Shown here: positions 11,645 through 54,419 of the stretch, piece after piece | How positions within the stretch are numbered: position 1 is the stretch's first letter | How the letters are laid out: every line of letters begins with the position of its first letter | From: Mnemiopsis leidyi | Lineage: Eukaryota | DNA: 64,000 bases | Direction of reading: 5' to 3' | Assembly (NCBI GenBank): GCA_048537945.1 | Contig: CM108484.1 | Coordinates: forward strand, 9,059,785-9,123,784 | Translations under genes and position numbers: made by a program | The notes under the pieces: model-generated | The model's database searches: none | Told to the model about the DNA's origin: nothing | The model's input: only the letters and a program-made list of their open reading frames with translations

Positions 11645-14600
11645 CTGATAAAATCATTATTAAAATATTTCTGCAGGGAAGACTATTTTCTATCAATAAC
11701 TCGGGGTTTTATTTATTTGTCTAAAATTAAATAGAAGTCTTGAAGTGCGACTTACCCTTAACCTTAACATTAACAGCGCATACCTGGTTGCTATGTCCCG
11801 ATGTGGCAATAGCAGCAATATTTTCTGGTCCAAGATCCCCCACCATAGCTTTGAACTTGTCCGCCTCTATTTTCACCATTTTCCTCCGCTTTGTCACTTC
11901 AAGTTCGTTACAAGCTCGCAGGTAGTCCAACTCGCTTTTGCGGGCCGAAGAAATGCGTTCCAACTCCCCACGCTAAAAAATTGGGCGTAAATCAACAGAA
12001 ACTCGGCACTTTATCATTGATCCCAGGCCCGAATCGATAAATTAAAAAGTTCCATGGAGATTACTGCGAAGAACCTCAACAAAAACTCAAACTCAGTACT
12101 CACGGCGTTTATGTTCTCTGCTTCTGCAGCCAGTTTTGCCTGATCGACGGCTGCTTCCCCTTCAATTTTCATAGACTCAGCCCGAGACTGTGCCTCTGCT
12201 CTCGACTGCCCTGTGCTCTCGACGGCAGCTGAGCTGTCATAATACGGCTGATTAAATGACATAAATAAAGCAGCAATCTGCATTTCAATGTAAGAAATTC
12301 GTTGTGATTGAATTTAAATTTTAAGTTTTGAGCTTGTCTCTAAAATGTGACTGTAAATGGCCTGAAAGAACCGTAAGTTTGGGATTTTTATTTGAAATTG
12401 AACTTAGAAGAACACTGCGAAAACTCACACGGCTTGTAACTCTAAAAGTTCTTTTCTGGCCCTCTCCGCTTCTGCTTCATCGTTGAGTATCTGTCTCTCA
12501 AGTTTTCCTCGAGCCTCTTGGTCCAACCGCTCAGCTTCGTGTCTGAATCAAGAAAATTTCATAAATTCTTCAATTAAAATGCCTCAGCACAGTAAAATCC
12601 TAGAAAAAATGTGCAACCTTAGTTAGAGGTTAAAGGAAAAAAGATTTACCTAGCGGTTGCCTCCTGAGAGTTGGTAGTGATCTCAATAGCCAGCTGTACC
12701 GATTTCTGGAGGGAGTCTCTAGTTCTCTGATCGACTGGCTCGACAGACTGTATGTCTATATTAGATATTCTAAGTCGATTAGCTGGGAAGTATAGTGAGT
12801 CTTTGTCGCCCAGGATCGCTTGGTTTATTATTCTCACTGAGTGCTGAAAGTAATACTAGTAAGTTACCTCCAATCTTTTGTTCACAAATGACGTCATCAT
12901 TCTTACCCCTCCCCCTTTTTGCTTGTTCATCATTCGTCATCATGGCTAAACTCCTCCATGATGAACTTATCCCAGTCAGAACCCCCCCCCCTCCCTGCTT
13001 GAGGCTAAATAGCAAAATCTTTTATCATTTTGATCTTGTTCAAATGAGACAATTTTGCCATATAATTAGACTTCTACTTTCTCAAGTTAAAGTATGTACA
13101 GCATGAGCATTTCAATAACCTTGTGAAAGTCATCAAAAGGCACTGCTGCCACGGCTCCTCTTATTCTTGAAGCAATTGATTTGCAAGCGTCCCCGACAAA
13201 ATCTGGCACAGAAAACAGAGACTCGGAATCGCGCTTGTAAGTCGGCGAATCTTTCTTTGGCGTATCAAACTGCCTGCAGTTGTTAGGGAAATAGAAGATG
13301 ATTCATGAAACACTGGAGAAAATCGGGCTAATTATAGGTATCTCTCATAAGAGGGTTATCGCTAATAAATTGGCGCTAGGACTGGGAGTGAAACTTGACA
13401 GTTCGAGTAATGATTTGGTGTTTCCAGCAAACCATAGGTAGGTTCCTATTTAAATCAAATTCAAAATTGCTCATTTTTGCTTCGAGTCTTTCACTTACCA
13501 ATTGTAACAAAGCTGTAAAGAAAGCCTGGCATGGTCAGAAGTTTCCACCGTAAAAACATCCGTCATAAAATCAGGTCCAAGGGAGAGATCCAGAGTTCTG
13601 ATGACATTGGGTCGTTTAGGCTGGCCTCCAGAGAGACTAAGTTGGGTAAAGTGCTCGTCTGGGCCTAGCATGACCAAGTCTGGTCCGAATATTACCCTGA
13701 AATTGTTGGCTTGAGCTTCTGAAACACCTCAGTTATATTTGCAGACCAGAGTGTGGCTGCAGCTTTGCGGCAGCAGGCCTGACAACGTCAGGCAAGATTA
13801 GAATTGCTACGAAGAGTGAAGACATGAAGATGACCTCTCTCCTAGCTCTGGGTCATCCGTTTCTCATGTCTTCTTTGGTGTTCCATCCCCGTCCACTGTC
13901 GTTAACCCTTTAATCAGCTCTGAGCTCTTCTCTGACCTCCGTCATGCAATGCAAATTTAATATTTATCCCAAGGGTGGAACTGGAATAAATTAATTGCGC
14001 GCGCGTTGCGTAACGTACGTAACGTAAAAACATTAGTCGCGCGACAAAAACCACTAAAAAGACAAAAGGATTAGCGTGTTCCACAAAACACTCTAACAGT
14101 GTGTTAGTCCAGTAGGCCTTTCGGCAAAGTGGTACCATTTGAAAAGACCTAAATTGGCCATTTCAAGAAAAAACATAAAATTTTCAACACTAAATTGGAG
14201 GTGTTCCGCCCGTACGATTTTCTTCAAACTTTCAGAGCATGTTCCTTTTGACCAACACTACAAGATAGCGTCGGGAAAAGAGGGGGTTTATGAGTAAGTT
14301 TTCGAAATACAACTTCAAACACAAGGAAATATCTGATAATAAAAAAGCCCAATTCAGAGGTGTTCCGACCGTGCGATTTTCTTTAAAATTTTACAGTATG
14401 TTCCTCTTGATCTAAACTATCAGAAAACGTAAAAAAATTTGAGGGTCTATGTGTTAGTTTTCGAGATACAACCTTAAACACAGGGAAAAATCTAGAAATA
14501 AGTAAGCTGACCATGGAACAAGCCGATTTTGGAGGTGTTCCGACCGTACGATTGTCTTTCAAATTTCACAGTATGTTCCTTTTGATCTAAACTATTAGAA

Positions 14601-17600
14601 AATGTAAAAAAATTGGGGGGTCTATGTGTTAGCTTTCGAGATACATCTCTAAACACAAGGAAATATCTCAAAATAAATAGGCTGAGAATGAAACAAACAA
14701 ATTATGAAGGTGTTCCAACAGTACGATATTCTTCAAAAATTTCACAGAATGTTCATTTTTTACTAATTTTAATAGTTTTACAATTTAAAGTAATGTTAAT
14801 TTTATACTTATCAGTCGCAAAACGTAAAGCGTGCCTCCAGCCAGAAAAGACACGTGGTTTTCAGATTTCTAGTAATTTTAGGCTGACAATTTTAATTTTT
14901 CGGCTATAGGTGTGATGATTTTACGAAATTATCAAATTCGGATTCCTCGTCAAATTTTACGTCAAAATGCTGGTTTACCTTTTCTCCAGGCTCTAAGTCG
15001 AAAATTTCCATTTTGGGGCCCTATAGGGGTAACTTAAGGGGTCACGTGATGTTTTTGGATTTAAAACTATCAAATTCGGATTCGTCGTCAAATTTTACGT
15101 CAAACTACCGGTCTAACTTTTTTCCTAGCTCAAAGTTGAAAATATCCATTCTGAGGCCTTATAAGGGGTCACTAAACGGTCCACGTGATCATTTTTCGGC
15201 TCCGAAACTATCAAATTCGGCTTCCGCTGGTCTAACTTTTCTTTAAGTTCAAAGTTGAAAATTTTCATTTTTAGGGCCTTAAACTCTTTAAAGGCCCTTA
15301 AAGCTTAAAAGGCCTTCAGATCAACTTTTCACATAGCCTAAGCCACAGAACCCGCTAAAATCTACAATAAAATCTACCTGAAATTTTCATGACTCTGTCT
15401 TTTTCGTTTGGACTTCAATTCGTACCCCAATTTGGAGACTTTTTGGGCCTTTAAAGGCCCTAAGAGGGGTCGGAGCGAATTTTAACATGGCAAAAGTCAC
15501 AGAACGTGATGAAATCTACCTTATCTGAAACTTTCAAGTCTCTATCTCTTACCGTTTGGGCTCCAATTCGTTTGGGGGAAGGAGGAAAGGGAGAGGGGGG
15601 TGGTCAAGGGTCGTATACCACAATTCACGTTGTCATATTAGGGGGGTGGCAACGTTTTTTTTAAAACCCGGGCTACAATTGGACGAGAAATCAATTAGGA
15701 ATAGCCTCGAGGTTCAAACATTTTAGGTTAAACCTCGACACGGAATCATTTTTCCTCAATTTTTTAAAATTTTATAGAATAAACGAAAAGTTTCTGTATT
15801 TCAAGAATAACTTGGAACACACTAAGAAAATCGTAAGGTCGGAACACTTCCAAAAAGGCCTGGTACCATGGTCAGCGTACATATTATGAAATATTTTCTT
15901 GTGTTTGAAGTTGTATCTCCGAAACTAACACATAGACCCCCAAATTTTTTCGACGTAATCTTGTAGTTTGAATAGTAAGGAACATACTGTGAAGGTTTAA
16001 AGAACAATCCTATAGTCGGAACACCTCGAAAAGGCCTGGTACCATGGCCGGCGTACATATTTTGAGATATTTCCTTGTGTTTGAAGTTGTATCTCCGAAA
16101 CTAACACATAGACCCCCAAATTTTTTTACTTTTTCTGATAGTTTAGATCAAAAGGAAGATACTGTGAAATTTTAAAGAAAATCGCACGGTCGGAACACCT
16201 CCAAAAATGCCTAGTACCATGGTCAGCGTACATATTATGAGATATTTCCTTGTGTTTGAAGTTGTATCTCCGAAACTAACACATAGACCCCCAAACTTTT
16301 TTACTTTTTCTGATAGTTTAGATCAAAAGGAAGATACTGTGAAATTTTAAAGAAAATCGCACGGTCGGAACACCTCCAAAAATGCCTAGTACCATGGTCA
16401 GCGTACATATTATGAGATATTTCCTTGTGTTTGAAGTTGTATCTCCGAAACTAACACATAGACCCCCAAATTTTTTTACTTTTTCTGATAGTTAAGATCA
16501 AAAGGAAGATACTGTGAAATCTTAAAGAAAATCGCACGGTCGGAACACCTCCAAAAATGCCTAGTACCATGGTCAGCGTACATATTATGTGATATTTCCT
16601 TGTGTTTGAAGTTGTATCTCCGAAACTAACACATAGACCCCCAAATTTTTTTACTTTTTCTGATAGTTTAGATCAAAAGGAAGATACTGTGAAATCTTAA
16701 AGAAAATCGCACGGTCGGAACACCTCCAAAAATGCCTAGTACCATGGTCAGCGTACATATTATGTGATATTTCCTTGTGTTTGAAGTTGTATCTCCGAAA
16801 CTAACACATAGACCCCCAAATTTTTTTACTTTTTCTGATAGTTTAGATCAAAAGGAAGATACTATGAAATTTTAAAGAAAATCGCACGGTCGGAACACCT
16901 CCAAAAAGACCCGGTACCAAAATTTCGGCAAATTGGTACCATGGTACCAGAAAGTCCAACTCCGTGGTTATAATAATATCGCGACAACTAACACATAGAC
17001 CTCAACTTTTTTCGACGTAATCTTGTAGTTTGAATAGTAAGGAACATACTGTGAAGGTTTAAAGAACAATCCTATAGTCGGAACACCTCGAAAAGGCCTG
17101 GTACCATGGCCGGCGTACATATTTTGAGATATTTCCTTGTGTTTGAAGTTGTATCTCCGAAACTAACACATAGACCCCCAAATTTTTTTACTTTTTCTGA
17201 TAGTTTAGATCAAAAGGAAGATACTGTGAAATTTTAAAGAAAATCGCACGGTCGGAACACCTCCAAAAATGCCTAGTACCATGGTCAGCGTACATATTAT
17301 GAGATATTTCCTTGTGTTTGAAGTTGTATCTCCGAAACTAACACATAGACCCCCAAACTTTTTTACTTTTTCTGATAGTTTAGATCAAAAGGAAGATACT
17401 GTGAAATTTTAAAGAAAATCGCACGGTCGGAACACCTCCAAAAATGCCTAGTACCATGGTCAGCGTACATATTATGAGATATTTCCTTGTGTTTGAAGTT
17501 GTATCTCCGAAACTAACACATAGACCCCCAAATTTTTTTACTTTTTCTGATAGTTAAGATCAAAAGGAAGATACTGTGAAATCTTAAAGAAAATCGCACG

Positions 17601-20600
17601 GTCGGAACACCTCCAAAAATGCCTAGTACCATGGTCAGCGTACATATTATGTGATATTTCCTTGTGTTTGAAGTTGTATCTCCGAAACTAACACATAGAC
17701 CCCCAAATTTTTTTACTTTTTCTGATAGTTTAGATCAAAAGGAAGATACTGTGAAATCTTAAAGAAAATCGCACGGTCGGAACACCTCCAAAAATGCCTA
17801 GTACCATGGTCAGCGTACATATTATGTGATATTTCCTTGTGTTTGAAGTTGTATCTCCGAAACTAACACATAGACCCCCAAATTATTTTACTTTTTCTGA
17901 TAGTTTAGATCAAAAGGAAGATACTGTGAAATTTTAAAGAAAATCGCACGGTCGGAACACCTCCAAAAAGACCCGGTACCAAAATTTCGGCAAATTGGTA
18001 CCATGGTACCAGAAAGTCCAACTCCGTGGTTATAATAATATCGCGACAACTAACACATAGACCTCAACTTTTTTCGACGTAATCTTGTAGTTTGAATAGT
18101 AAGGAACATACTGTGAAGGTTTAAAGAACAATCCTATGGTCGGAACACCTCGAAAAGGCCTGGTACCATGGCCGGCGTACATATTTTGAGATATTTCCTT
18201 GTGTTTGAAGTTGTATCTCCGAAACTAACACATAGACCCCCAAATTTTTTTACTTTTTCTGATAGTTTAGATCAAAAGGAAGATACTGTGAAATTTTAAA
18301 GAAAATCGCACGGTCGGAACACCTCCAAAAATGCCTAGTACCATGGTCAGCGTACATATTATGAGATATTTCCTTGTGTTTGAAGTTGTATCTCCGAAAC
18401 TAACACATAGACCCCCAATTTTTTTTACTTTTTCTGATAGTTTAGATCAAAAGGAAGATACTGTGAAATCTTAAAGAAAATCGCACGGTCGGAACACCTC
18501 CAAAAATGCCTAGTACCATGGTCAGCGTACATATTATGTGATATTTCCTTGTGTTTGAAGTTGTATCTCCGAAACTAACACATAGACCCCCAAATTTTTT
18601 TACTTTTTCTGATAGTTTAGATCAAAAGGAAGATACTATGAAATTTTAAAAGAAAATCGCACGGTCGGAACACCTCCAAAAAGACCCGGTACCAAAATTT
18701 CGGCAAATTGGTACCATGGTACCAGAAAGTCCAACTCTGTTAGTCAGAAGGCCTTTCGGCAAAGTTGTTCCAATGAATGCCCTTAAATTTGCCGTTGCAA
18801 TGGAAAACATAGAATTTTAAACTCAAAATTGGAAGTGTTCCGACCGTACGATTTTCTTGAAAATTTCACAGTATGTTCCTATTGACCTAAATTAAAAGAT
18901 AACGTGGAGAAAATAGGGGGTCTAAGAGTCAGTTTTCGAGATACAACTTCAAACACAAGGAAATATCTTACCATAGAACAAGCCCATTTTGGAGGTGTTC
19001 CGACCGTACGATTTTCTTTAAAATTTCACAGAATGTTCCTTTTGATCTAAACTATCAGAAAATGTAAAAAAATTTGGGGGTCTATGTGTTAGTTTTCGAG
19101 ATACAACCTCAAACACAAGGAAATATCTCGAAATATGTACTCTGACCATGGAACAAGGCCTTTTTGGAGGTGTTCCCACCGTGCGATTTTCTTTAAACTT
19201 TCACAGTATGTTTCTATTGATCTAAACTATCAGAAAATGTAAAAAAATTTGGGGGTCTATGTGTTAGTTTTCGAGATACAACCTCAAACACAAGGAAATA
19301 TCTCGAAATAAGTACGCTGACCATAAAACAAGCCGATTTTGGAGGTGTTCCGACCGTACGATTTTCTTTAAACTTTCACAGTATGTTTCTTTTGATCTAA
19401 ACTATCAGAAAACGCAAAAAAGTTGGGGGGTCTATGTGTTAGTTTTCGAGATACAACCTCAAACACAAGGAAATATCTCGAAATAAGTACGCTGACCATG
19501 GAACAAGCCTATTTTGGAGGTGTTCCGACCGTACGATTTTTTTAAAACTTTCACAGTATGTTTCTTTTGATCTAAACTATCAGAAAATGTAAAAAAATTT
19601 GGGGGTCTACGTGTTAGTTTTCGAGATACAACCTCAAACACAAGGAAATATCTCGAAATATGTACTCTGACCATGGAACAAGGCCTTTTTGGAGGTGTTC
19701 CCACCGTGCGATTTTCTTTAAACTTTCACAGTATGTTTCTATTGATCTAAACTATAAGAAAATGTAAAATAATTTGGGGGTCTATGTGTTAGTTTTCGAG
19801 ATAAAACCTCAAACACAAGGAAATATCTCGAAATAAGTACGCTGACCATAAAACAAGCCGATTTTGGAGGTGTTCCGACCGTACGATTTTCTTTAAACTT
19901 TCACAGTATGTTCTTTTTGATCTAAACTATCAGAAAACGCAAAAAAGTTGGGGGGTCTATCTGTTAGTTTTCGAGATACAACCTCAAACACAAGGAAATA
20001 TCTCGAAATAAGTACGCTGACCATGGAATAAGCCTATTTTGGAGGTGTTCCGACCGTACGATTTTCTTTAAACTTTAACAGTATGTTCCTTTTAATCTAA
20101 ACTATCAGAAAATGTAAAAAAATTTGGGGGTCTATGTGTTAGTTTTCGAAAAACAACTTCAAACACAAGGAAATATCTCTAAATAAGTACGCTGACCATG
20201 GATCAAGCCGATTTTGGAGGTGTTTCGACCGTATGATTTTCTTTAAACTTTCACAGTATGTTCCTTTTGATCTAAACTATCAGAAAATGTAAAAAAATTT
20301 GGGGGTCTATGAGTTAGTTTTCGAGATACAACTTCAAACACAAGGAAATATCTCGAATTAAGTACACTGACCATGGAACAAGCCGATTTCGGAGGTGTTC
20401 CGGCCGTACGATTTTCTTTAAAATTTTACAGTATGTTTCTTTTGATCTAAATTATCAGAAAACGTAACAAAAAGTGGGGGTCTATGTGTAAGTTTTCGAG
20501 ATACAACTTAAAACACAAGGATATATCTCTTAATAAGTATGCTGTCCATGGAACAAGCCCATTTTGGAGGTGAGAAAAGTGGGGGTCTATATTTACGCTT

Positions 20601-23600
20601 TCGAGATATTATTCATCTCATAAGATAATTGGCGATCTTTTTTATGTAAAACCGTGTTGAATACAAGGTGTCTTCGAATCACTTCACCTTCCTTTTTAAG
20701 GCAGGTTCAGTCAGTCCACTTTGGTGGGTTAGTATTAGACATCAAGAGAGAGTCTCCAGTCAACTCTCTGTCAGTCAACTTTGTCAACCCATCAGATCCC
20801 CTCATTTAACCTGCTCGAAGTCCAACCTGCAGACCCTGGGGCCTGACACAGCCCTGGGTAACGAACAGTTGACACATAAATTTTGGTCAATCACAATTCA
20901 TATGCACCCACTCACGTCACCACCTTTAACCGCAGCTATTTGTCTTCTAGATGCTCATATTATAAGTGTATGAATCATAACCCCCCGCCGCTAGTCGTCT
21001 TCTAGCCACTCATGAGTGTATGAATTACAAACCTCTAACACGGACAGTGGAACATTAGACAAAACCAGCCAAGGGGAACTGGTAAAAGCTATGTCAGAAA
21101 TGTGCCTTTAACTAAACGCCACATACCAAATACAACCATGGAAATGCCAAAAAATGCCAAAACTTAACAGTAACAGTTAAAACCACGTCCCGGACCAAGG
21201 CATCAAACACTCGGTCCCCAAAGAACAATATGCACGATTAAGCCACGAGGGTCACCTAGCAGGACCGTTAGCAAAAAGCAGTGGTAGTCCCTCGCAGAAA
21301 CCACCTCACCATTCCGGAAGGGCGTTTCGACGCTTGACTCCTAACGGGTTCACTATGGCAATGACAGAGGTCCTTCAGGACATCCTCGATCCACCGGGCC
21401 TTAACATTTTGTTATGTCCTTTGGAAGTACCAGCCTAGCGAACCCCCAGCCAGCTGGGCTTTTGGTACACTCCTGCAATCCAAAGGAACCCCTAGAAACG
21501 TTAGCCACAAGGCGGACGTAGCCTTCTTGTTAATTCAGGAAGGCAATGTGGGTGCCCACTGAGTAATTTAAAAAGAAAAAAGTCCACTTTCTCATTTTGG
21601 TCATTTTATGTACATGTTACTGCCCTCTGAGGTACGTGTTACTGTCCTTTCAAGTACGTGTTACCGTTCTTACAGTAACGTGTTACTGTCCTCTCAGGTG
21701 CGTGTTACTGTCCTCTCAGGTACGTGTTACTGCCCTCTCAGATACGTGTTGCTTTTCTTTCAATAACGTGTTACCGTCCTCCGAGTATGCGTTACCTTTC
21801 AGATACGTTTTAAATCGAAAATGAGGATAAATATAGATATCACCGCAGCCTTGCGGGCGGTATTGGTTAAAACCACAAGGAACATTCTGAGAAAGTGTAA
21901 AGGAAATTGTACAATCGGAACACCTCCAAAAAGGCCTTGTTCCATGGTCAGAGTACATGTATTTCGAGAAATTTCCTTGTGTTTGAGGTTGTATCTCGAA
22001 AACTAACACATAGACCCCCCAATTTTTTTACATTTTCTGATAGTTTAGATCAATAGGAACATACTGTGAAAGTTTAAAGAAAATCGCACGGTCGGAACAC
22101 CTCCAAAAAGGCCTTGTTCCATGGTCAGAGTACATATTTCGAGATATTTCCTTGTGTTTGAGGTTGTATCTCGAAAACTAAAACATAGACCCCCAATTTT
22201 TTTACATTTTCTGATAGTTTAGATCAAAAGGAACATACTGTGAAAGTTTAAAGAAAATCGCACGGTGGGAACACCTCCAAATAGGCCTTGTTCCATGGTC
22301 AGAGTACATATTTCGAGATATTTCCTTGTGTTTGAGGTTGTATCTCGAAAACTAACACATAGACCCCCCAATTTTTTTACATTTTCTGATAGTTTAGATC
22401 AAAAGGAACATACTGTGAAAGTTTAAAGAAAATCGCACGGTGGGAACACCTTCAAAAAGGCCTTGTTCCAAAATTTTGGCTATTTGGAACAATGGAACAA
22501 GAAAGTCCAACTCCGTGGTTTTTTAGCTATATCTCGAAAACTAAAAAATAGGCCCCCATTTTTTTCGACGAATTCTTGTAGTTCTGATCGATAGGAACAT
22601 TCTGAGAAAGTGTAAAGGAAATTGTACAGTGGGAACAACTCCAAAAAGGCCTTGTTCCATGGTCAGAGTACATATTTCGAGATATTTCGTTGTGTTTGAG
22701 GTTGTATCTCGAAAACTAACACATAGACCCCCAAATTTTTTTACATTTTCTGATAGTTTAGATCAATAGGAACATACTGTGAAAGTTTAAAGAAAATCGC
22801 ACGGTCGGAACACCTCCAAAAAGGCCTTGTTCCATGGTCAGAGTACATATTTCGAGATATTTCCTTGTGTTTGAGGTTGTATCTCGAAAACTAACACATA
22901 GACCCCCCAATTTTTTTACATTTTCTGATAGTTTAGATCAAAAGGAACATACTGTGAAAGTTTAAAGAAAATCGCACGGTGGGAACACCTTCAAAAAGGC
23001 CTTGTTCCAAAATTTTGGCTATTTGGAACAATGGAACAAGAAAGTCCAACTCCGTGGTTTTTTAGCTATATCTCGAAAACTAAAAAATAGGCCCCCATTT
23101 TTTTCGACGAATTCTTGTAGTTCTGATCGATAGGAACATTCTGAGAAAGTGTAAAGGAAATTGTACAGTGGGAACAACTCCAAAAAGGCCTTGTTCCATG
23201 GTCAGATTACATATTTCGAGATATTTCGTTGTGTTTGAGGTTGTATCTCGAAAACTAACACATAGACCCCCAAATTTTTTTACATTTTCTGATAGTTTAG
23301 ATCAAAAGGAACATACTGTGAAAGTTTAAAGAAAATCGCACGGTGGGAACACCTCCAAATAGGCCTTGTTCCATGGTCAGAGTACATATTTCGAGATATT
23401 TCCTTGTGTTTGAGGTTGTATCTCGAAAACTAACACATAGACCCCCCAATTTTTTTACATTTTCTGATAGTTTAGATCAAAAGGAACATACTGTGAAAGT
23501 TTAAAGAAAATCGCACGGTGGGAACACCTTCAAAAAGGCCTTGTTCCAAAATTTTGGCTATTTGGAACAATGGAACAAGAAAGTCAAACTCCGTGGTTTT

Positions 23601-26600
23601 TTAGCTATATCTCGAAAACTAAAAAATAGGCCCCCATTTTTTTCGACGAATTCTTGTAGTTCTGATCGATAGGAACATTCTGAGAAAGTTTAAAGAAAAT
23701 CGCACGGTGGGAACACCTCCAAATAGGCCTTGTTCCATGGTCAGAGTACATATTTCGAGATATTTCCTTGTGTTTGAGGTTGTATCTCGAAAACTAACAC
23801 ATAGACCCCCAAATTTTTTACATTTTCTGATAGTTTAGATCAAAAGGAACATACTGTGAAAGTTTAAAGAAAATCGCACGGTGGGAACACCTTCAAAAAG
23901 GCCTTGTTCCAAAATTTTGGCTATTTGGAACAATGGAACAAGAAAGTCCAACTCCGTGGTTTTTTAGCTATATCTCGAAAACTAAAAAATAGGCCCCCAT
24001 TTTTTTCGACGAATTCTTGTAGTTCTGATCGATAGGAACATTCTGAGAAAGTGTAAAGGAAATTGTACAGTGGGAACAACTCCAAAAAGGCCTTGTTCCA
24101 TGGTCAGAGTACATATTTCGAGATATTTCGTTGTGTTTGAGGTTGTATCTCGAAAACTAACACATAGACCCCCAAATTTTTTTACATTTTCTGATAGTTT
24201 AGATCAATAGGAACATACTGTGAAAGTTTAAAGAAAATCGCACGGTCGGAACACCTCCAAAAAGGCCTTGTTCCATGGTCAGAGTACATATTTCGAGATA
24301 TTTCCTTGTGTTTGAGGTTGTATCTCGAAAACTAACACATAGACCCCCCAATTTTTTTACATTTTCTGATAGTTTAGATCAAAAGGAACATACTGTGAAA
24401 GTTTAAAGAAAATCGCACGGTGGGAACACCTTCAAAAAGGCCTTGTTCCAAAATTTTGGCTATTTGGAACAATGGAACAAGAAAGTCCAACTCCGTGGTT
24501 TTTTAGCTATATCTCGAAAACTAAAAAATAGGCCCCCATTTTTTTCGACGAATTCTTGTAGTTCTGATCGATAGGAACATTCTGAGAAAGTGTAAAGGAA
24601 ATTGTACAGTGGGAACAACTCCAAAAAGGCCTTGTTCCATGGTCAGATTACATATTTCGAGATATTTCGTTGTGTTTGAGGTTGTATCTCGAAAACTAAC
24701 ACATAGACCCCCAAATTTTTTTACATTTTCTGATAGTTTAGATCAAAAGGAACATACTGTGAAAGTTTAAAGAAAATCGCACGGTGGGAACACCTCCAAA
24801 TAGGCCTTGTTCCATGGTCAGAGTACATATTTCGAGATATTTCCTTGTGTTTGAGGTTGTATCTCGAAAACTAACACATAGACCCCCCAATTTTTTTACA
24901 TTTTCTGATAGTTTAGATCAAAAGGAACATACTGTGAAAGTTTAAAGAAAATCGCACGGTGGGAACACCTTCAAAAAGGCCTTGTTCCAAAATTTTGGCT
25001 ATTTGGAACAATGGAACAAGAAAGTCAAACTCCGTGGTTTTTTAGCTATATCTCGAAAACTAAAAAATAGGCCCCCATTTTTTTCGACGAATTCTTGTAG
25101 TTCTGATCGATAGGAACATTCTGAGAAAGTGTAAAGGAAATTGTACAGTGGGAACACCTCCAAAAAGGCCTTGTTCCATGGTCAGAGTACATATTTCGAG
25201 ATATTTCCTTGTGTTTGAGGTTGTATCTCGAAAACTAACACATAGACCCCCAAATTTTTTTACATTTTCTGATAGTTTAGATCAAAAGGAACATACTGTG
25301 AAAGTTTAAAGAAAATCGCACGGTGGGAACACCTCCAAATAGGCCTTGTTCCATGGTCAGAGTACATATTTCGAGATATTTCCTTGTGTTTGAGGTTGTA
25401 TCTCGAAAACTAACACATAGACCCCCCAATTTTTTTACATTTTCTGATAGTTTAGATCAAAAGGAACATACTGTGAAAGTTTAAAGAAAATCGCACGGTG
25501 GGAACACCTTCAAAAAGGCCTTGTTCCAAAATTTTGGCTATTTGGAACAATGGAACAAGAAAGTCAAACTCCGTGGTTTTTTAGCTATATCTCGAAAACT
25601 AAAAAATAGGCCCCCATTTTTTTCGACGAATTCTTGTAGTTCTGATCGATAGGAACATTCTGAGAAAGTGTAAAGGAAATTGTACAGTGGGAACACCTCC
25701 AAAAAGGCCTTGTTCCATGGTCAGAGTACATATTTCGAGATATTTCCTTGTGTTTGAGGTTGTATCTCGAAAACTAACACATAGACCCCCAAATTTTTTT
25801 ACATTTTCTGATAGTTTAGATCAAAAGGAACATACTGTGAAAGTTTAAAGAAAATCGCACGGTGGGAACACCTTCAAAAAGGCCCTGTTCTATGGTCAGA
25901 GTACATATTTCGAGATATTTCCTTGTGTTTGAGGTTGTATCTCGAAAACTAACAAATAGACCCCCAAATTTTTTTACATTTTCTGATAGTTTAGATCAAA
26001 AGGAACATACTGTGAAAGTTTAAAGAAAATCGCACGGTGGGAACACCTTCAAAAAGGCCTTGTTCCAAAATTTTGGCAATTTGGAACAATGGAACAAGAA
26101 AGTCCAACTCCGTGGTTTTTTAGCTATATCTCGAAAACTAAAAAATAGGCCCCCATTTTTTTCGACGAATTCTTGTAGTTTTGATCGATAGGAACATTCT
26201 GAGAAAGTGTAAAGGAAATTGTACAGTGGGAACACCTCCAAAAAGGCCTTGTTCCATGGTCAGAGTACATATTTCGAGATATTTCCTTGTGTTTGAGGTT
26301 GTATCTCGAAAACTAACACATAGACCCCCAAATGTTTTTACATTTTCTGATAGTTTAGATCAAAAGAAACATACTGTGAAAGTTTAAAGAAAATCGCACG
26401 GTGGGAACACCTCCAAAAAGGCCTTGTTCCATGGTCAGAGTACATATTTCGAGATATTTCCTTGTGTTTAAGGTTGTATCTCGAAAACTAACACATAGAC
26501 CCCCAAATTTTTTTACATTTTCTGATAGTTTAGATCAAAAGGAACATACTGTGAAAGTTTAAAGAAAATCGCACGGTGGGAACACCTTCAAAAAGGCCCT

Positions 26601-29600
26601 GTTCTATGGTCAGAGTACATATTTCGAGATATTTCCTTGTGTTTGAGGTTGTATCTCGAAAACTAACACATAGACCCCCAAATTTTTTTACATTTTCTGA
26701 TAGTTTAGATCAAAAGGAACATACTGTGAAAGTTTAAAGAAAATCGCACGGTGGGAACACCTTCAAAAAGGCCTTGTTCCAAAATTTTGGCAATTTGGAA
26801 CAATGGAACAAGAAAGTCCAACTCCGTGGTTTTTTAGCTATATCTCGAAAACTAAAAAATAGGCCCCCATTTTTTTCGACGAATTCTTGTAGTTTTGATC
26901 GATAGGAACATTCTGAGAAAGTGTAAAGGAAATTGTACAGTGGGAACACCTCCAAAAAGGCCTTGTTCCATGGTCAGAGTACATATTTCGAGATATTTCC
27001 TTGTGTTTGAGGTTGTATCTCGAAAACTAACACATAGACCCCCAAATTTTTTTACATTTTCTGATAGTTTAGATCAAAAGGAACATACTGTGAAAGTTTA
27101 AAGAAAATCGCACGGTGGGAACACCTTCAAAAAGGCCTTGTTCCAAAATTTTGGCTATTTGGAACAATGGAACAAGAAAGTCCAACTCCGTGGTTTTTTA
27201 GCTATATCTCGAAAACTAAAAAATAGGCCCCCATTTTTTTCGACGAATTCTTGTAGTTTTGATCGATAGGAACATTCTGAGAAAGTGTAAAGGAAATTGT
27301 ACAGTGGGAACACCTCCAAAAAGGCCTTGTTCCATGGTCAGAGTACATATTTCGAGATATTTCCTTGTGTTTGAGGTTGTATCTCGAAAACTAACACATA
27401 GACCCCCAAATTTTTTTACATTTTCTGATAGTTTAGATCAATAGGAACATACTGTGAAAGTTTAAAGAAAATCGCACGGTCGGAACACCTCCAAAAAGGC
27501 CTTGTTCCATGGTCAGAGTACATATTTCGAGATATTTCCTTGTGTTTGAGGTTGTATCTCGAAAACTAACACATAGACCCCCCAATTTTTTTACATTTTC
27601 TGATAGTTTAGATCAAAAGGAACATACTGTGAAAGTTTAAAGAAAATCGCACGGTGGGAACACCTTCAAAAAGGCCTTGTTCCAAAATTTTGGCTATTTG
27701 GAACAATGGAACAAGAAAGTCCAACTCCGTGGTTTTTTAGCTATATCTCGAAAACTAAAAAATAGGCCCCCATTTTTTTCGACGAATTCTTGTAGTTCTG
27801 ATCGATAGGAACATTCTGAGAAAGTGTAAAGGAAATTGTACAGTGGGAACAACTCCAAAAAGGCCTTGTTCCATGGTCAGATTACATATTTCGAGATATT
27901 TCGTTGTGTTTGAGGTTGTATCTCGAAAACTAACACATAGACCCCCAAATTTTTTTACATTTTCTGATAGTTTAGATCAAAAGGAACATACTGTGAAAGT
28001 TTAAAGAAAATCGCACGGTGGGAACACCTCCAAATAGGCCTTGTTCCATGGTCAGAGTACATATTTCGAGATATTTCCTTGTGTTTGAGGTTGTATCTCG
28101 AAAACTAACACATAGACCCCCCAATTTTTTTACATTTTCTGATAGTTTAGATCAAAAGGAACATACTGTGAAAGTTTAAAGAAAATCGCACGGTGGGAAC
28201 ACCTTCAAAAAGGCCTTGTTCCAAAATTTTGGCTATTTGGAACAATGGAACAAGAAAGTCAAACTCCGTGGTTTTTTAGCTATATCTCGAAAACTAAAAA
28301 ATAGGCCCCCATTTTTTTCGACGAATTCTTGTAGTTCTGATCGATAGGAACATTCTGAGAAAGTGTAAAGGAAATTGTACAGTGGGAACACCTCCAAAAA
28401 GGCCTTGTTCCATGGTCAGAGTACATATTTCGAGATATTTCCTTGTGTTTGAGGTTGTATCTCGAAAACTAACACATAGACCCCCAAATTTTTTTACATT
28501 TTCTGATAGTTTAGATCAAAAGGAACATACTGTGAAAGTTTAAAGAAAATCGCACGGTGGGAACACCTCCAAATAGGCCTTGTTCCATGGTCAGAGTACA
28601 TATTTCGAGATATTTCCTTGTGTTTGAGGTTGTATCTCGAAAACTAACACATAGACCCCCCAATTTTTTTACATTTTCTGATAGTTTAGATCAAAAGGAA
28701 CATACTGTGAAAGTTTAAAGAAAATCGCACGGTGGGAACACCTTCAAAAAGGCCTTGTTCCAAAATTTTGGCTATTTGGAACAATGGAACAAGAAAGTCA
28801 AACTCCGTGGTTTTTTAGCTATATCTCGAAAACTAAAAAATAGGCCCCCATTTTTTTCGACGAATTCTTGTAGTTCTGATCGATAGGAACATTCTGAGAA
28901 AGTGTAAAGGAAATTGTACAGTGGGAACACCTCCAAAAAGGCCTTGTTCCATGGTCAGAGTACATATTTCGAGATATTTCCTTGTGTTTGAGGTTGTATC
29001 TCGAAAACTAACACATAGACCCCCAAATTTTTTTACATTTTCTGATAGTTTAGATCAAAAGGAACATACTGTGAAAGTTTAAAGAAAATCGCACGGTGGG
29101 AACACCTTCAAAAAGGCCCTGTTCTATGGTCAGAGTACATATTTCGAGATATTTCCTTGTGTTTGAGGTTGTATCTCGAAAACTAACAAATAGACCCCCA
29201 AATTTTTTTACATTTTCTGATAGTTTAGATCAAAAGGAACATACTGTGAAAGTTTAAAGAAAATCGCACGGTGGGAACACCTTCAAAAAGGCCTTGTTCC
29301 AAAATTTTGGCAATTTGGAACAATGGAACAAGAAAGTCCAACTCCGTGGTTTTTTAGCTATATCTCGAAAACTAAAAAATAGGCCCCCATTTTTTTCGAC
29401 GAATTCTTGTAGTTTTGATCGATAGGAACATTCTGAGAAAGTGTAAAGGAAATTGTACAGTGGGAACACCTCCAAAAAGGCCTTGTTCCATGGTCAGAGT
29501 ACATATTTCGAGATATTTCCTTGTGTTTGAGGTTGTATCTCGAAAACTAACACATAGACCCCCAAATTTTTTTACATTTTCTGATAGTTTAGATCAAAAG

Positions 29601-32600
29601 GAACATACTGTGAAAGTTTAAAGAAAATCGCACGGTGGGAACACCTTCAAAAAGGCCCTGTTCTATGGTCAGAGTACATATTTCGAGATATTTCCTTGTG
29701 TTTGAGGTTGTATCTCGAAAACTAACACATAGACCCCCAAATTTTTTTACATTTTCTGATAGTTTAGATCAAAAGGAACATACTGTGAAAGTTTAAAGAA
29801 AATCGCACGGTGGGAACACCTTCAAAAAGGCCTTGTTCCAAAATTTTGGCAATTTGGAACAATGGAACAAGAAAGTCCAACTCCGTGGTTTTTTAGCTAT
29901 ATCTCGAAAACTAAAAAATAGGCCCCCATTTTTTTCGACGAATTCTTGTAGTTTTGATCGATAGGAACATTCTGAGAAAGTGTAAAGGAAATTGTACAGT
30001 GGGAACACCTCCAAAAAGGCCTTGTTCCATGGTCAGAGTACATATTTCGAGATATTTCCTTGTGTTTGAGGTTGTATCTCGAAAACTAACACATAGACCC
30101 CCAAATTTTTTTACATTTTCTGATAGTTTAGATCAAAAGGAACATACTGTGAAAGTTTAAAGAAAATCGCACGGTGGGAACACCTTCAAAAAGGCCTTGT
30201 TCCAAAATTTTGGCTATTTGGAACAATGGAACAAGAAAGTCCAACTCCGTGGTTTTTTAGCTATATCTCGAAAACTAAAAAATAGGCCCCCATTTTTTTC
30301 GACGAATTCTTGTAGTTTTGATCGATAGGAACATTCTGAGAAAGTGTAAAGGAAATTGTACAGTGGGAACACCTCCAAAAAGGCCTTGTTCCATGGTCAG
30401 AGTACATATTTCGAGATATTTCCTTGTGTTTGAGGTTGTATCTCGAAAACTAACACATAGACCCCCAAATTTTTTTACATTTTCTGATAGTTTAGATCAA
30501 TAGGAACATACTGTGAAAGTTTAAAGAAAATCGCACGGTCGGAACACCTCCAAAAAGGCCTTGTTCCATGGTCAGAGTACATATTTCGAGATATTTCCTT
30601 GTGTTTGAGGTTGTATCTCGAAAACTAACACATAGACCCCCCAATTTTTTTACATTTTCTGATAGTTTAGATCAAAAGGAACATACTGTGAAAGTTTAAA
30701 GAAAATCGCACGGTGGGAACACCTTCAAAAAGGCCTTGTTCCAAAATTTTGGCTATTTGGAACAATGGAACAAGAAAGTCCAACTCCGTGGTTTTTTAGC
30801 TATATCTCGAAAACTAAAAAATAGGCCCCCATTTTTTTCGACGAATTCTTGTAGTTCTGATCGATAGGAACATTCTGAGAAAGTGTAAAGGAAATTGTAC
30901 AGTGGGAACAACTCCAAAAAGGCCTTGTTCCATGGTCAGATTACATATTTCGAGATATTTCGTTGTGTTTGAGGTTGTATCTCGAAAACTAACACATAGA
31001 CCCCCAAATTTTTTTACATTTTCTGATAGTTTAGATCAAAAGGAACATACTGTGAAAGTTTAAAGAAAATCGCACGGTGGGAACACCTCCAAATAGGCCT
31101 TGTTCCATGGTCAGAGTACATATTTCGAGATATTTCCTTGTGTTTGAGGTTGTATCTCGAAAACTAACACATAGACCCCCCAATTTTTTTACATTTTCTG
31201 ATAGTTTAGATCAAAAGGAACATACTGTGAAAGTTTAAAGAAAATCGCACGGTGGGAACACCTTCAAAAAGGCCTTGTTCCAAAATTTTGGCTATTTGGA
31301 ACAATGGAACAAGAAAGTCAAACTCCGTGGTTTTTTAGCTATATCTCGAAAACTAAAAAATAGGCCCCCATTTTTTTCGACGAATTCTTGTAGTTCTGAT
31401 CGATAGGAACATTCTGAGAAAGTGTAAAGGAAATTGTACAGTGGGAACACCTCCAAAAAGGCCTTGTTCCATGGTCAGAGTACATATTTCGAGATATTTC
31501 CTTGTGTTTGAGGTTGTATCTCGAAAACTAACACATAGACCCCCAAATTTTTTTACATTTTCTGATAGTTTAGATCAAAAGGAACATACTGTGAAAGTTT
31601 AAAGAAAATCGCACGGTGGGAACACCTCCAAATAGGCCTTGTTCCATGGTCAGAGTACATATTTCGAGATATTTCCTTGTGTTTGAGGTTGTATCTCGAA
31701 AACTAACACATAGACCCCCCAATTTTTTTACATTTTCTGATAGTTTAGATCAAAAGGAACATACTGTGAAAGTTTAAAGAAAATCGCACGGTGGGAACAC
31801 CTTCAAAAAGGCCTTGTTCCAAAATTTTGGCTATTTGGAACAATGGAACAAGAAAGTCAAACTCCGTGGTTTTTTAGCTATATCTCGAAAACTAAAAAAT
31901 AGGCCCCCATTTTTTTCGACGAATTCTTGTAGTTCTGATCGATAGGAACATTCTGAGAAAGTGTAAAGGAAATTGTACAGTGGGAACACCTCCAAAAAGG
32001 CCTTGTTCCATGGTCAGAGTACATATTTCGAGATATTTCCTTGTGTTTGAGGTTGTATCTCGAAAACTAACACATAGACCCCCAAATTTTTTTACATTTT
32101 CTGATAGTTTAGATCAAAAGGAACATACTGTGAAAGTTTAAAGAAAATCGCACGGTGGGAACACCTTCAAAAAGGCCCTGTTCTATGGTCAGAGTACATA
32201 TTTCGAGATATTTCCTTGTGTTTGAGGTTGTATCTCGAAAACTAACAAATAGACCCCCAAATTTTTTTACATTTTCTGATAGTTTAGATCAAAAGGAACA
32301 TACTGTGAAAGTTTAAAGAAAATCGCACGGTGGGAACACCTTCAAAAAGGCCTTGTTCCAAAATTTTGGCAATTTGGAACAATGGAACAAGAAAGTCCAA
32401 CTCCGTGGTTTTTTAGCTATATCTCGAAAACTAAAAAATAGGCCCCCATTTTTTTCGACGAATTCTTGTAGTTTTGATCGATAGGAACATTCTGAGAAAG
32501 TGTAAAGGAAATTGTACAGTGGGAACACCTCCAAAAAGGCCTTGTTCCATGGTCAGAGTACATATTTCGAGATATTTCCTTGTGTTTGAGGTTGTATCTC

Positions 32601-35600
32601 GAAAACTAACACATAGACCCCCAAATGTTTTTACATTTTCTGATAGTTTAGATCAAAAGAAACATACTGTGAAAGTTTAAAGAAAATCGCACGGTGGGAA
32701 CACCTCCAAAAAGGCCTTGTTCCATGGTCAGAGTACATATTTCGAGATATTTCCTTGTGTTTAAGGTTGTATCTCGAAAACTAACACATAGACCCCCAAA
32801 TTTTTTTACATTTTCTGATAGTTTAGATCAAAAGGAACATACTGTGAAAGTTTAAAGAAAATCGCACGGTGGGAACACCTTCAAAAAGGCCCTGTTCTAT
32901 GGTCAGAGTACATATTTCGAGATATTTCCTTGTGTTTGAGGTTGTATCTCGAAAACTAACACATAGACCCCCAAATTTTTTTACATTTTCTGATAGTTTA
33001 GATCAAAAGGAACATACTGTGAAAGTTTAAAGAAAATCGCACGGTGGGAACACCTTCAAAAAGGCCTTGTTCCAAAATTTTGGCAATTTGGAACAATGGA
33101 ACAAGAAAGTCCAACTCCGTGGTTTTTTAGCTATATCTCGAAAACTAAAAAATAGGCCCCCATTTTTTTCGACGAATTCTTGTAGTTTTGATCGATAGGA
33201 ACATTCTGAGAAAGTGTAAAGGAAATTGTACAGTGGGAACACCTCCAAAAAGGCCTTGTTCCATGGTCAGAGTACATATTTCGAGATATTTCCTTGTGTT
33301 TGAGGTTGTATCTCGAAAACTAACACATAGACCCCCAAATTTTTTTACATTTTCTGATAGTTTAGATCAAAAGAAACATACTGTGAAAGTTTAAAGAAAA
33401 TCGCACGGTGGGAACACCTTCAAAAAGGCCCTGTTCTATGGTCAGAGTACATATTTCGAGATATTTCCTTGTGTTTGAGGTTGTATCTCGAAAACTAACA
33501 CATAGACCCCCAAATTTTTTTACATTTTCTGATAGTTTAGATCAAAAGGAACATACTGTGAAAGTTTAAAGAAAATCGCACGGTGGGAACACCTTCAATA
33601 AGGCCTTGTTCCAAAATTTTGGCAATTTGGAACAATGGAACAAGAAAGTCCAACTCCGTGGTTTTTTAGCTATATCTCGAAAACTAAAAAATAGGCCCCC
33701 ATTTTTTTCGACGAATTCTTGTAGTTTTGATCGATAGGAACATTCTGAGAAAGTGTAAAGGAAATTGTACAGTGGGAACACCTCCAAAAAGGCCTTGTTC
33801 CATGGTCAGAGTACATATTTCGAGATATTTCCTTGTGTTTGAGGTTGTATCTCGAAAACTAACACATAGACCCCCAAATTTTTTTACATTTTCTGATAAT
33901 TTAGATCGAAAGAAACATACTGTGAAAGTTTAAAGAAAATCGCACGGTGGGAACACCTTCAAAAAGGCCCTGTTCTATGGTCAGAGTACATATTTCGAGA
34001 TATTTCCTTGTGTTTGAGGTTGTATCTCGAAAACTAACACATAGACCCCCCAATATTTTTACATTTTCTGATAGTTTAGATCAAAAGGAACATACTGTGA
34101 AAGTTTAAAGAAAATCGCACGGTGGGAACACCTTCAATAAGGCCTTGTTCCAAAATTTTGGCAATTTGGAACAATGGAACAAGAAAGTCCAACTCCGTGG
34201 TTTTTTAGCTATATCTCGAAAACTAAAAAATAGGCCCCCATTTTTTTCGACGAATTCTTGTAGTTTTGATCGATAGGAACATTCTGAGAAAGTGTAAAGG
34301 AAATTGTACAGTGGGAACACCTCCAAAAAGGCCTTGTTCCATGGTCAGAGTACATATTTCGAGATATTTCCTTGTGTTTGAGGTTGTATCTCGAAAACTA
34401 ACACATAGACCCCCAAATTTTTTTACATTTTCTGATAGTTTAGATCAAAAGGAACATACTGTGAAAGTTTAAAGAAAATCGCACGGTGGGAACACCTTCA
34501 AAAAGGCCCTGTTCTATGGTCAGAGTACATATTTCGAGATATTTCCTTGTGTTTGAGGTTGTATCTCGAAAACTAACAAATAGACCCCCAAATTTTTTTA
34601 CATTTTCTGATAGTTTAGATCAAAAGGAACATACTGTGAAAGTTTAAAGAAAATCGCACGGTGGGAACACCTTCAAAAAGGCCTTGTTCCAAAATTTTGG
34701 CAATTTGGAACAATGGAACAAGAAAGTCCAACTCCGTGGTTTTTTAGCTATATCTCGAAAACTAAAAAATAGGCCCCCATTTTTTTCGACGAATTCTTGT
34801 AGTTTTGATCGATAGGAACATTCTGAGAAAGTGTAAAGGAAATTGTACAGTGGGAACACCTCCAAAAAGGCCTTGTTCCATGGTCAGAGTACATATTTCG
34901 AGATATTTCCTTGTGTTTGAGGTTGTATCTCGAAAACTAACACATAGACCCCCAAATGTTTTTACATTTTCTGATAGTTTAGATCAAAAGAAACATACTG
35001 TGAAAGTTTAAAGAAAATCGCACGGTGGGAACACCTCCAAAAAGGCCTTGTTCCATGGTCAGAGTACATATTTCGAGATATTTCCTTGTGTTTAAGGTTG
35101 TATCTCGAAAACTAACACATAGACCCCCAAATTTTTTTACATTTTCTGATAGTTTAGATCAAAAGGAACATACTGTGAAAGTTTAAAGAAAATCGCACGG
35201 TGGGAACACCTTCAAAAAGGCCCTGTTCTATGGTCAGAGTACATATTTCGAGATATTTCCTTGTGTTTGAGGTTGTATCTCGAAAACTAACACATAGACC
35301 CCCAAATTTTTTTACATTTTCTGATAGTTTAGATCAAAAGGAACATACTGTGAAAGTTTAAAGAAAATCGCACGGTGGGAACACCTTCAAAAAGGCCCTG
35401 TTCTATGGTCAGAGTACATATTTCGAGATATTTCCTTGTGTTTGAGGTTGTATCTCGAAAACTAACAAATAGACCCCCAAATTTTTTTACATTTTCTGAT
35501 AGTTTAGATCAAAAGGAACATACTGTGAAAGTTTAAAGAAAATCGCACGGTGGGAACACCTTCAAAAAGGCCTTGTTCCAAAATTTTGGCAATTTGGAAC

Positions 35601-52493: not shown

Positions 52494-52834
52494 TCTTTCT
52501 GCAAAGATTATGTATTATCTGTGTTAAAGCTTAACAAAATTAGCAATATGAGAACATACCTGAAAATAATTAGGGTGGTGGCAACCACCCCCAAATTTTA
52601 ATGGGAGTTCAAAAAAAGGTGCCATCCCCCCTAGTATGACAACAGGAAGTGTGGTATACGACCCCCCCTGACTTCCTGACCAATCCCGACCCCCCACTGA
52701 CGCTTTTTTGCAAACAAATTGGAGCCCAAAAGGTAAGAGATAGAGACTCGAAAATTTCAGATAAGGTAGATTTCATTACGTTCTACGGCTTTGGCTATGT
52801 TACAATTAGCTCCAACCCCTCTAAGGAACCTTTA

Positions 52835-53470
52835 AGGCCTTAAAAGCCGATATATCCGAATTTGATAGTTTTGAATCCATAAAACGAGCAAGTGACCCCT
52901 TAAGTGAACCCTTATAGGGCCCAAAAATAGAAATTTTCAACTTTAAGCAAGGAGAAAAAATAGACCAGTATTTTGACATAAAATTTGATAAGGAATCCGA
53001 ATTTGATAGTTTTGAATGTGAAAAATGGTCACGTGACCCGTTAAGTGAGCCCTTATAAGGCCTCAAAATGGAAATTTTTAACTATGGCCTAGGGGAAAAG
53101 TTAAACCAGTAAAATTTGATGAGGAATCTAAATGTGAAGGTTTTGAATCCGAAAAATCATCATGTGCCCCCATAAGTGACCCCCTATAGCCAAAAATTGA
53201 AAATTTTTAACTTTGTTGTAGATGAAAAGTTAGACTAGTATTTTCACATAAAATTCGACAAGGAATCCAAATTAAAAGTTTGAAGTCAAAAAATATCACA
53301 TGACCTGCTGAGTATTTTTTGTATTTGTTTTTTGTTACAAAAATTTTGAATTTTTGGCTATAGGGGGTCACTTATGGGGCCACATGATGATTTTTCGGAA
53401 TCAAAACCTTCACATTTAGATTCCTCGTCAAATTTTACTGGTTTAACTTTTCCCCTAGGCCATAGTTGAA
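52835..53470 (+). repeat. Satellite family B, block 3, upstream of the MVP start; the last ~130 bp (53335-53470) is inverted relative to 53085-53200
   Basis: Same monomer family. 53340-53465 is the exact reverse complement of 53085-53200, giving a local inverted duplication. The flanking segment 52560-52830 is the reverse complement of 15290-15560. Confidence 0.8.
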
Positions 53471-53896
53471 AATGAATAATGTTCCCATCCTTCAGCAGCC
53501 TTCTTTCTGTCTGCTAGGGCCAGGATGGTCTGGGGATCGGCTCATTCTTCGGATTGTGACTAGGATTGCAATTAATCAACTCCATGAGATTTGACTTGAA
53601 CACGACATCAAGTATGTTGAACGGTTTTCATAATGAACTTAAGATTTTTTCCAAGCGGGCAGTGACACATGATTTCTTGCATCGTCAACATGACACTCGG
53701 TCTTTGCCGGGTGGGTTGATGGGGCAAGTACCCGCTCATTGAGGTCGAGATTAATTGTTTCTGAATGGAACACTTCTACGTCAACCCACACTTCACTAAT
53801 TTACTGTTTGAGTGTGAGAATGAGATATATTTATAATTTGATTTTTAAAATGCTGTATATAAAATTTGTTGTTTTCTTGAAATTTGTTGTTTTCTT

Positions 53897-54181: not shown

Positions 54182-54189
54182 TTTTCTTG

Positions 54190-54415: not shown

Positions 54416-54419
54416 TTCT

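Follow-up and report, generated by a model that had tools for sequence, protein, structure and literature searches.

The window analysed here is a stretch of 64,000 nucleotides (nt) from Mnemiopsis leidyi (GenBank assembly GCA_048537945.1, contig CM108484.1, positions 9,059,785 to 9,123,784 of the forward strand). It contains a 175-bp satellite in four blocks, named A1 to A4 below. Our subject is a hairpin carried by the variant monomers of this satellite, together with the module, H, of which the hairpin is a part. The module marks the boundary of higher-order units and of whole arrays, the two sites that distinguish its arms differ array-wide, and its stem is not conserved in related arrays.

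Block A1 (14208..14759, minus strand) is a short degenerate 175-bp array with a canonical motif of the TTGTTCC type, which is also the type found in block A3 (18842..20572, minus strand). Block A2 (15824..18737, plus strand) consists of 17 monomers with the canonical motif TAGTACC (10 copies) or TGGTACC (4 copies), and block A4 (21877..45444, plus strand) of 132 monomers with TTGTTCC (68 copies) or CTGTTCT (25 copies). The blocks share 90-94% monomer identity among themselves, and A1/A2 and A3/A4 form inverted pairs. The idea that A3 is a foldback copy of A2 was rejected, as A3 has the other motif allele and a different terminal module.

Monomers are arranged head to tail with a constant period of 175 bp over 15.8-18.7 kb and 21.9-45.4 kb. 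In A2, higher-order units are made of canonical monomers, and each is closed by a variant monomer of 188 bp (n=3). In A4 there are 39 such units of 2-5 monomers each (byV 14 times, abV 6 times, bbbyV 6 times, bbV 5 times, and others), and a 189-bp variant monomer forms the end of every one, whether it has 2, 3, 4 or 5 monomers; the final one of these 39 variant monomers is shortened by the array end. The abV trimers are 98.1-100% identical to one another, while monomer types a and b are 96.6% identical and the variant monomers are distinct. The satellite is thus a higher-order repeat: its monomers run head to tail at a constant length, and whole units resemble one another more closely than do the monomers inside a unit.

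The unit types of A4 follow an order (abV abV bV abV abV bbV byV bbyV bV ...) that recurs over several kb (21917-45444) and points to duplication at yet another level, beyond that of the higher-order unit. Units of five monomers are concentrated in the 3' third of the block. A segment of 1.3 kb that is unique in the window (20573-21876) holds a 22-bp minisatellite of 7.8 copies (21610-21781) and a GC-rich hairpin, CCGCAGCCTTGCGG (21849-21862), both just upstream of the A4 start.

Anatomy and pairing of the H module

An earlier note on this DNA had described the hairpin as an insert in the variant monomer, with arms that stay exactly complementary in A2 and A4 because two paired positions changed together (g/t with c/a, and a/t with t/a). 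The strings it quoted are present exactly. The A2 form, CCGGTACCAAAATTTCGGCAAATTGGTACCATGGTACCAG, occurs in 3 copies (starts 16911, 17973 and 18686), and the A4 form in 15 copies with the loop GGCTATTT (first at 22461) and 24 with the loop GGCAATTT (last at 45392). The paired changes are as stated, and the cores are complementary in 42/42 copies (3 in A2 and 39 in A4). Tabulating the arms over all variant monomers therefore turned up no mismatched copy, but it also gave only two states, with no variation of the arms within a block, so that the window provides a single evolutionary contrast. Among the 38 full A4 variants, 12/189 sites are polymorphic; about 1.6 of these would be expected in the arms and none was seen. 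Because the monomers themselves barely vary, the invariance of the A4 arms has no statistical power.

On a gapless alignment the stem is 10 bp long in A4 and 8 bp in A2. Scored with the first right-arm copy, four stem pairs are variable, of which two are compensated and two, both terminal, are broken in A2; with the second copy as partner, there are two compensated pairs and one broken pair. Both compensated pairs fall on a single A2 row. The predicted DNA fold has an energy of -8.0 kcal/mol in A2 (z score -2.2) and of -8.8 kcal/mol in A4 (z -2.2 or -1.8), and 6-12 of 200 shuffles fold as well as these hairpins. Chimeras of A2 and A4 arms lose the fold (-4.6 and -3.0 kcal/mol, z ~0). The folds of both window hairpins (z ~-2) are modest. 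Rfam gave no match at the gathering score anywhere in the window.

The quoted sequence is part of a module of 60-70 nt, which replaces ~50 nt of the canonical monomer. In H, the left arm is the motif of the monomer itself. It is followed by an AT-rich loop, then by right arms that are two inverted motif copies in tandem, and last by the conserved tail AGAAAGTCCAACTC. The segment replaced in the variant monomer comprises the loop, the right arms, the tail and ~25 further nt, after which a distinctive downstream half-monomer follows. The left arm, being resident, does not belong to an insert, and the description as an insert missed the context, since the module closes every unit and the arrays.

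The first A2 copy of H (16911..16962, plus strand) has the left arm CCGGTACC, the loop AAAATTTCGGCAAATT, the right arms GGTACCA and TGGTACCAG, and the tail AAAGTCCAACTC; the second (17973..18024, plus strand) has the same sequence. At the third and terminal copy (18686..18737, plus strand) the array stops at ...CAACTC and abuts the terminal module of A3 (TGTTAGTC...). The first A4 copy (22461..22513, plus strand) has the left arm CCTTGTTCC, the loop AAAATTTTGGC[T/A]ATTT, the right arms GGAACAA and TGGAACAAG, and the same tail, AAAGTCCAACTC. The terminal A4 copy (45392..45444, plus strand) again stops at ...CAACTC; next come GTGTTAGT and sequence without relation to the satellite.

The left arm is the motif that resides in every monomer (CTTGTTCCA in A4, C[T/C]GGTACCA in A2; consensus over both, C[C/T][G/T]GT[A/T]CC). 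The canonical monomers of A2 have CCT[A/G]GTACCATGG, those of A4, A3 and A1 mostly CCTTGTTCCATGG, and the motif counts are 14/14 for T[A/G]GTACC in A2 and 68/93 for TTGTTCC in A4. Since the left arm is a resident motif that differs in the same way in canonical monomers, the "covarying" positions are array-wide subfamily markers.

The right arms, in turn, correspond exactly in both arrays to the left arm or the canonical motif in reverse complement, as expected from a template-switch donor. In right-arm copy 1, the left arm of the same variant and the beginning of the loop (..CCAAA) are mirrored. Copy 2 with its flanks (ATGGTACCAG or ATGGAACAAG) matches the canonical CT[G/T]GT[A/T]CCAT of the array exactly in reverse complement; in A2, copy 2 is not complementary to the left arm of its own variant, CCGGTACCAA. 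The A2 allele TGGTACCA is a self-complementary octamer, and it lies two sites away from the forward allele TTGTTCCA and also from the inverted allele TGGAACAA.

The A2 and A4 modules have in common the loop (14/16 positions), an identical tail of 19 nt, the insertion point and the distinctive downstream half-monomer. This shared module-specific sequence argues for a single origin of the module. Loop and tail show 4 differences in 54 positions outside the linked sites, and the rest of the variant unit is ~28% different. A match of the right arms and tail to an inverted monomer head was not significant past the 8-12-nt motif.

Array ends in the window and on other contigs

Both forward arrays, A2 and A4, stop at the same nucleotide, ...GTCCAACTC. 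Further arrays were reached through the translated open reading frame (ORF) of the hairpin region and then by a profile search. P0006 led to one unlinked locus in the same species (L004-L008), where an A2-type array ends with the identical module beside a unique flank. The profile search added two diverged arrays, L018/L019 and L020, on three metagenome or read-assembly contigs, with monomers only 76-80% identical to those of the window. H is the exact 3' end of all five arrays. They all read ...GTC[C/T]AACTC, with a conserved tail AAGTC[C/T]AACTC, and the sequences that follow (TGTTAG, GTGTTA, CAGTCT, GGCTGA and AGCTAT) are unrelated to the satellite and to one another. The diverged arrays, for example, end in ..AAGTCCAACTCGG followed by ctgaag and in ..AAGTCTAACTC followed by agctat, again with unrelated sequence downstream. 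Among the three array ends of the window lineage we found no longer common flank (flank-to-flank z <=1.4), apart from the 8-nt GTGTTAGT after A2 and A4.

This short match gives the junction CAACTC, then (G)TGTTAGT, after the H tail at both ends (18725-18760 and 45432-45452). Its 3' part is the start of A3's inverted terminal module at A2, and at A4 comprises only 8 nt before unrelated sequence. The pairs of forward and reverse arrays may be copies of one composite unit.

Sharp array starts were considered and rejected, as the starts fade into degenerate monomers upstream. The two upstream spacers were likewise rejected as a common left flank; they are unrelated, and the one between A1 and A2 (14760-15823) is a copy of a second repeat family.

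The reverse blocks A1 and A3 end in a module of ~105 nt, T, which occupies the same monomer interval as H (GGAACAC...ACTAACA). In A1 (14100..14207, minus strand) it is a variant monomer in which the array ends ...GGACTAACAC, with the right-arm motif ATGGTACCA and without a complementary left arm; in A3 (18738..18841, minus strand) the array ends ...CTGACTAACA, with the right-arm motif TTGGAACAA. The two T modules are homologous (alignment z 46), are positional homologues of H, and show the same switch as H, with GGTACCA in A1 versus GGAACAA in A3. The A1 copy is in the GGTACC state and unpaired, and the intact canonical monomer of A1 has TTGTTCC. Being both unpaired and unlike its canonical motif, it implies that the two-site state moves among motif copies regardless of pairing.

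In the diverged arrays the stem is not kept. The terminal H copy of L018 reads GACCGTTCC / GGTACAA / TGGTACAG, an internal copy CCGTGTTCC / TTGGTACAAG, and the L020 copy GCTTGTTCC / GGTACGA / TGGTACAAG. The left arm is GTTCC and the right arms are GGTACA or GGTACG, so that in all three copies one of the two "covarying" pairs is a T.T mismatch, the a/t site having T in the left arm and T in the right arms as well, with other stem mismatches in addition. As a right-arm state, GGTACA is a hybrid between those of A2 and A4. Predicted folds of -2.9, -5.0 and -0.8 kcal/mol (z +0.8, -1.3 and +1.2) are no better than those of shuffled sequences. What these modules do keep is the loop, the tail and the terminal position, and those of L018 and L020 also share the insertion point and the downstream half-monomer with A2 and A4. 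A search for the hairpin in other arrays and relatives, as the earlier note had proposed, thus recovered the module (L004-L008, L018/L019, L020), but with mismatched arms and no significant fold in L018 and L020.

At the start of the L020 contig, in monomer orientation (1509-1554), at least 46 nt of an inverted canonical monomer (87% identical by manual count) run straight into ..ATGATACAA-actcgt-AAAGTCCTAC and then a forward half-monomer. The right-arm motif and tail may be the edge of an old inversion. In L021, from the same sample as L018, positions 700-840 hold a short inverted junction of two monomer fragments. This array fragment has no H module and stops elsewhere in the monomer, at ..GATCAAAA, so that the H tail does not mark every array end.

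A predicted protein of 539 aa, P0008, known as protein only, contains 33 residues of the A2-type hairpin translation between unrelated sequence, which suggests a solitary partial monomer with an H module inside a gene model at another locus. A scan of metagenomes with CCAAAATTTN{15,35}AGAAAGTCCAACTC returned six chance matches only (L009-L014), and bacterial and archaeal genomes and viral contigs scanned with CTAACACATAGACCCCC gave single chance matches only. There were no matches to the concatenated translation of eight satellite ORFs, nor in exact look-ups of four ORFs, and sequence strings searched for in the literature turned up nothing of relevance.

Origin of the complementary arms

We favour, with a probability of roughly 0.6, the reading that H is a terminal module of the arrays and that its arms acquired their complementarity separately from lineage to lineage, and we infer that this happened by gene conversion or template switching among motif copies. 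Each array would have one two-site motif haplotype, either TTGTTCCA with its complement TGGAACAA or the self-complementary TGGTACCA. Gene conversion or short template switching would have carried the haplotype to motif copies of both orientations, in a process that would combine quasi-palindrome correction with the ordinary concerted evolution of a satellite. Because TGGTACCA is its own reverse complement and lies two sites from either allele, it could replace copies in both orientations by homology-dependent conversion, and pairing would follow automatically. Template switching creates and repairs stems with multi-base "compensatory" changes and homogenises the arms of inverted repeats (PMC8794818, PMC5453318, PMC8604942). 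Complementarity that comes from conversion or template switching would thus be a by-product of the mutational process, and not evidence of a selected structure. The higher-order periodicity, finally, would result from amplification units delimited by the terminal module.

The earlier note had left a choice between structural constraint on the hairpin and conversion or foldback template switching that regenerates complementarity. Constraint is not supported, given the mismatched arms of L018/L019 and L020, the two uncompensated terminal pairs of A2 and the unpaired T module of A1. Regeneration fits with a left arm that is the monomer's motif, with canonical monomers that share its state and with a self-complementary A2 allele. 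Judged by covariation in the sequences at hand, H would not pass for a conserved structured hairpin, as pairing is not kept in the diverged homologues and there are not several independent double changes.

The more diverged lineages share the mismatched state GTTCC / GGTACA, although their status as outgroups rests on monomer divergence only. If the mismatched state is ancestral, A4 would have perfected its stem by a change in the right arms (T to A), and A2 by a change in the left arm and the canonical monomers (T to A) together with a single true double change (T-A to G-C). Quasi-palindrome repair predicts correction both ways, and selection for pairing would look alike.

Several points weigh against the reading we favour. 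The direction of change is unproven, and the copies in L018 and L020 could have decayed from a hairpin that was perfect before. If, on the other hand, the imperfect state came first, the two arrays perfected their cores through opposite arms, an outcome that selection for pairing yields as well. No conversion or template-switch event has been directly observed, and there are only four independent lineages of the module. The better conservation of loop and tail hints at some constraint on the module.

The strongest alternative, unlikely though it appears to us, is that the hairpin is a functional cis-element, for example the 3' termination hairpin of a non-autonomous element of the Helitron/Helentron-like HINE type. 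The stem would then be kept by selection, and the units would be read-through multimers. Such an element would account for sharp and identical 3' ends in five arrays with unrelated flanks and fuzzy 5' starts, and for perfect cores in both window arrays when chimeras of the arms lose the fold. Between the end of the palindrome and the terminus lie 12-21 nt, inside the range reported for Helitrons (~11 bp) and HINEs (8-35 bp; PMC4067079). The layout of HINEs likewise combines tandem repeats in the centre and a palindrome in a conserved right flank (PMC7492417), and rolling-circle replication can yield tandem arrays of truncated elements (PMC12628747). However, the 3' end reads ...CAACTC instead of CTRR, and the first flanking bases (T, G, C, G and A) reveal neither an A/T or TT target nor a terminal T run. 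Upstream of the arrays, no subterminal inverted repeat was found, the two spacers show no relation, and a defined 5' boundary is lacking. The terminal modules of L018 and L020, moreover, still stand at array ends in spite of mismatches and no significant fold, and the L021 fragment ends at another point of the monomer.

A related proposal, which we regard as quite doubtful, is that the tail AAGTC[C/T]AACTC and the adjacent (quasi)palindrome are the cis-acting terminus of an undescribed mobile or rolling-circle-amplified unit. Such a unit would seed arrays and set their period, and selection for an active terminus, not mutational bias, would be why two sister arrays perfected the stem independently through opposite arms.

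It is very improbable that the hairpin arose independently in each subfamily, by recurrent foldback or inversion on different monomer backgrounds. Right arms that copy the local canonical motif exactly would agree with this, as would the frequency of inversions in the satellite (A1/A2, A3/A4 and the L021 junction) and the first unit of L020, where the inverted canonical monomer leads into the right-arm motif and tail. The loop, the 19-nt tail, the insertion point and the half-monomer that A2 and A4 share, and that L018 and L020 share too, speak against it, and a single origin is far more parsimonious. Coincidence, in which independent point substitutions happened to preserve pairing, gains a little from there being one contrast only and from a self-complementary A2 state that eases pairing, but it is effectively refuted by the six coordinated substitutions (two sites in three motif copies) at exactly complementary positions, for which we estimate a rough probability of <1e-5 at the observed divergence of 10-22%.

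With arms that are copies of a motif, one allele that is self-complementary and relatives that are mismatched, the case illustrates how compensatory evolution can be mimicked by concerted evolution and template switching. When "covariation" between repeat subfamilies has two states only, it is easily mistaken for structural selection. The pairing of the hairpin is an ordinary feature of satellite concerted evolution, and the useful by-product of the analysis is that the period-defining variant is a conserved array-terminal module. That the same monomer defines the period and terminates the array in several lineages ties the origin of higher-order repeats to a bounded, possibly mobile, unit of amplification.

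Surrounding sequence and comparison with known systems

The rest of the window resembles an animal genome and, like the satellite, contains no long ORF. Exons of a major vault protein gene lie at 46617-52475 on the minus strand, with an ORF at 47057-47401. Three contigs from a related species (L001-L003, 72-86% identical) are syntenic for this gene and have a gene resembling a G protein-coupled receptor where the window has the satellite; no satellite was found in them within 10 kb of the vault gene. The satellite complex of 31 kb is probably a lineage-specific addition beside or within the major vault protein gene.

The second repeat family, whose copies contain ~140-bp tandem repeats, is found at 14760-15823, 47973-48424, 52611-53473 and 54419-54531, and includes an inverted pair with arms at 53074-53208 and 53339-53473 (96% complementary). 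A 232-bp unit occurs twice at 53957-54424 with 98-99% identity, and related inverted copies lie at 50558-50746. A large quasi-palindrome at 59154-60087, with arms of up to 139 nt and 92% complementarity, is built from 9-bp units, (ACAATGGCG)n, and its open frames on both strands are probably spurious. It is followed at 60200-60298 by a near-perfect inverted repeat of 48 nt with a 3-nt spacer (98% complementary).

In the alpha satellite of primates, a distinct monomer type marks the higher-order period, and higher-order copies are more alike than monomer types. The satellite described here is similar, as its higher-order copies are 98-100% identical and its monomer types differ more. Unlike in alpha satellite, the monomer that marks the period also terminates the array, and the length of the unit varies from 2 to 5 monomers. 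The alternating orientation of arrays of one satellite, with symmetric junctions, may have a parallel in the satellite regions with dyad symmetries reported from the Tribolium madens satellitome (PMC13081366).

Canonical Helitrons need a 5' TC and a 3' CTRR, whereas the satellite ends in ...GTC[C/T]AACTC and has no definable 5' ends. Their palindrome of 16-20 nt is found ~11 bp from the 3' end; the stems of A2 and A4 have 8-10 bp and end 12 nt away with right arm 2 or 21 nt away with right arm 1, and are degenerate in L018 and L020. Helitrons insert between A and T and do not duplicate the target, and the 3' flanks of the satellite begin with T, G, C, G and A.

There are parallels with Cg_HINE of Crassostrea gigas and DINE-1 of Drosophila, which have arrays of ~160-175-bp repeats and a short conserved right flank, with a palindrome that lies between a few and a few dozen nt from a sharp 3' end (PMC7492417, PMC4067079). 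As in HINEs, one repeat is present in short dispersed and in long arrays and in both orientations. However, HINE and DINE-1 elements have their central repeats between conserved flanks, and the satellite has a conserved 3' module and no common left flank. They also have a TT or T-rich target and T runs at their boundaries, both of which the satellite flanks lack. Between the 3' region and the upstream spacers there were no inverted matches of at least 10 nt except AT-only strings (subterminal repeats of HINEs have 12-15 bp), the true 5' end being undefined. No left-flank microsatellite was found, and the satellite further differs from HINEs in its terminal bases and in a palindrome that consists of copies of the motif of the repeat itself, degenerate in relatives. 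We do not class it as a member of the Helitrons or HINEs, and consider it unlikely that it works like one.

The last comparison is with quasi-palindrome correction. In contrast to documented template switches, the donors here may also have been canonical monomers elsewhere in the array, as in concerted evolution, three motif copies were changed, and event and direction were deduced and not reconstructed on a tree. The likeness lies in the pattern of change, with clustered differences that are the reverse complement of a neighbouring sequence, an imperfect repeat that becomes perfect, and changes that look compensatory and arise without selection (PMC8794818, PMC5453318, PMC8604942).

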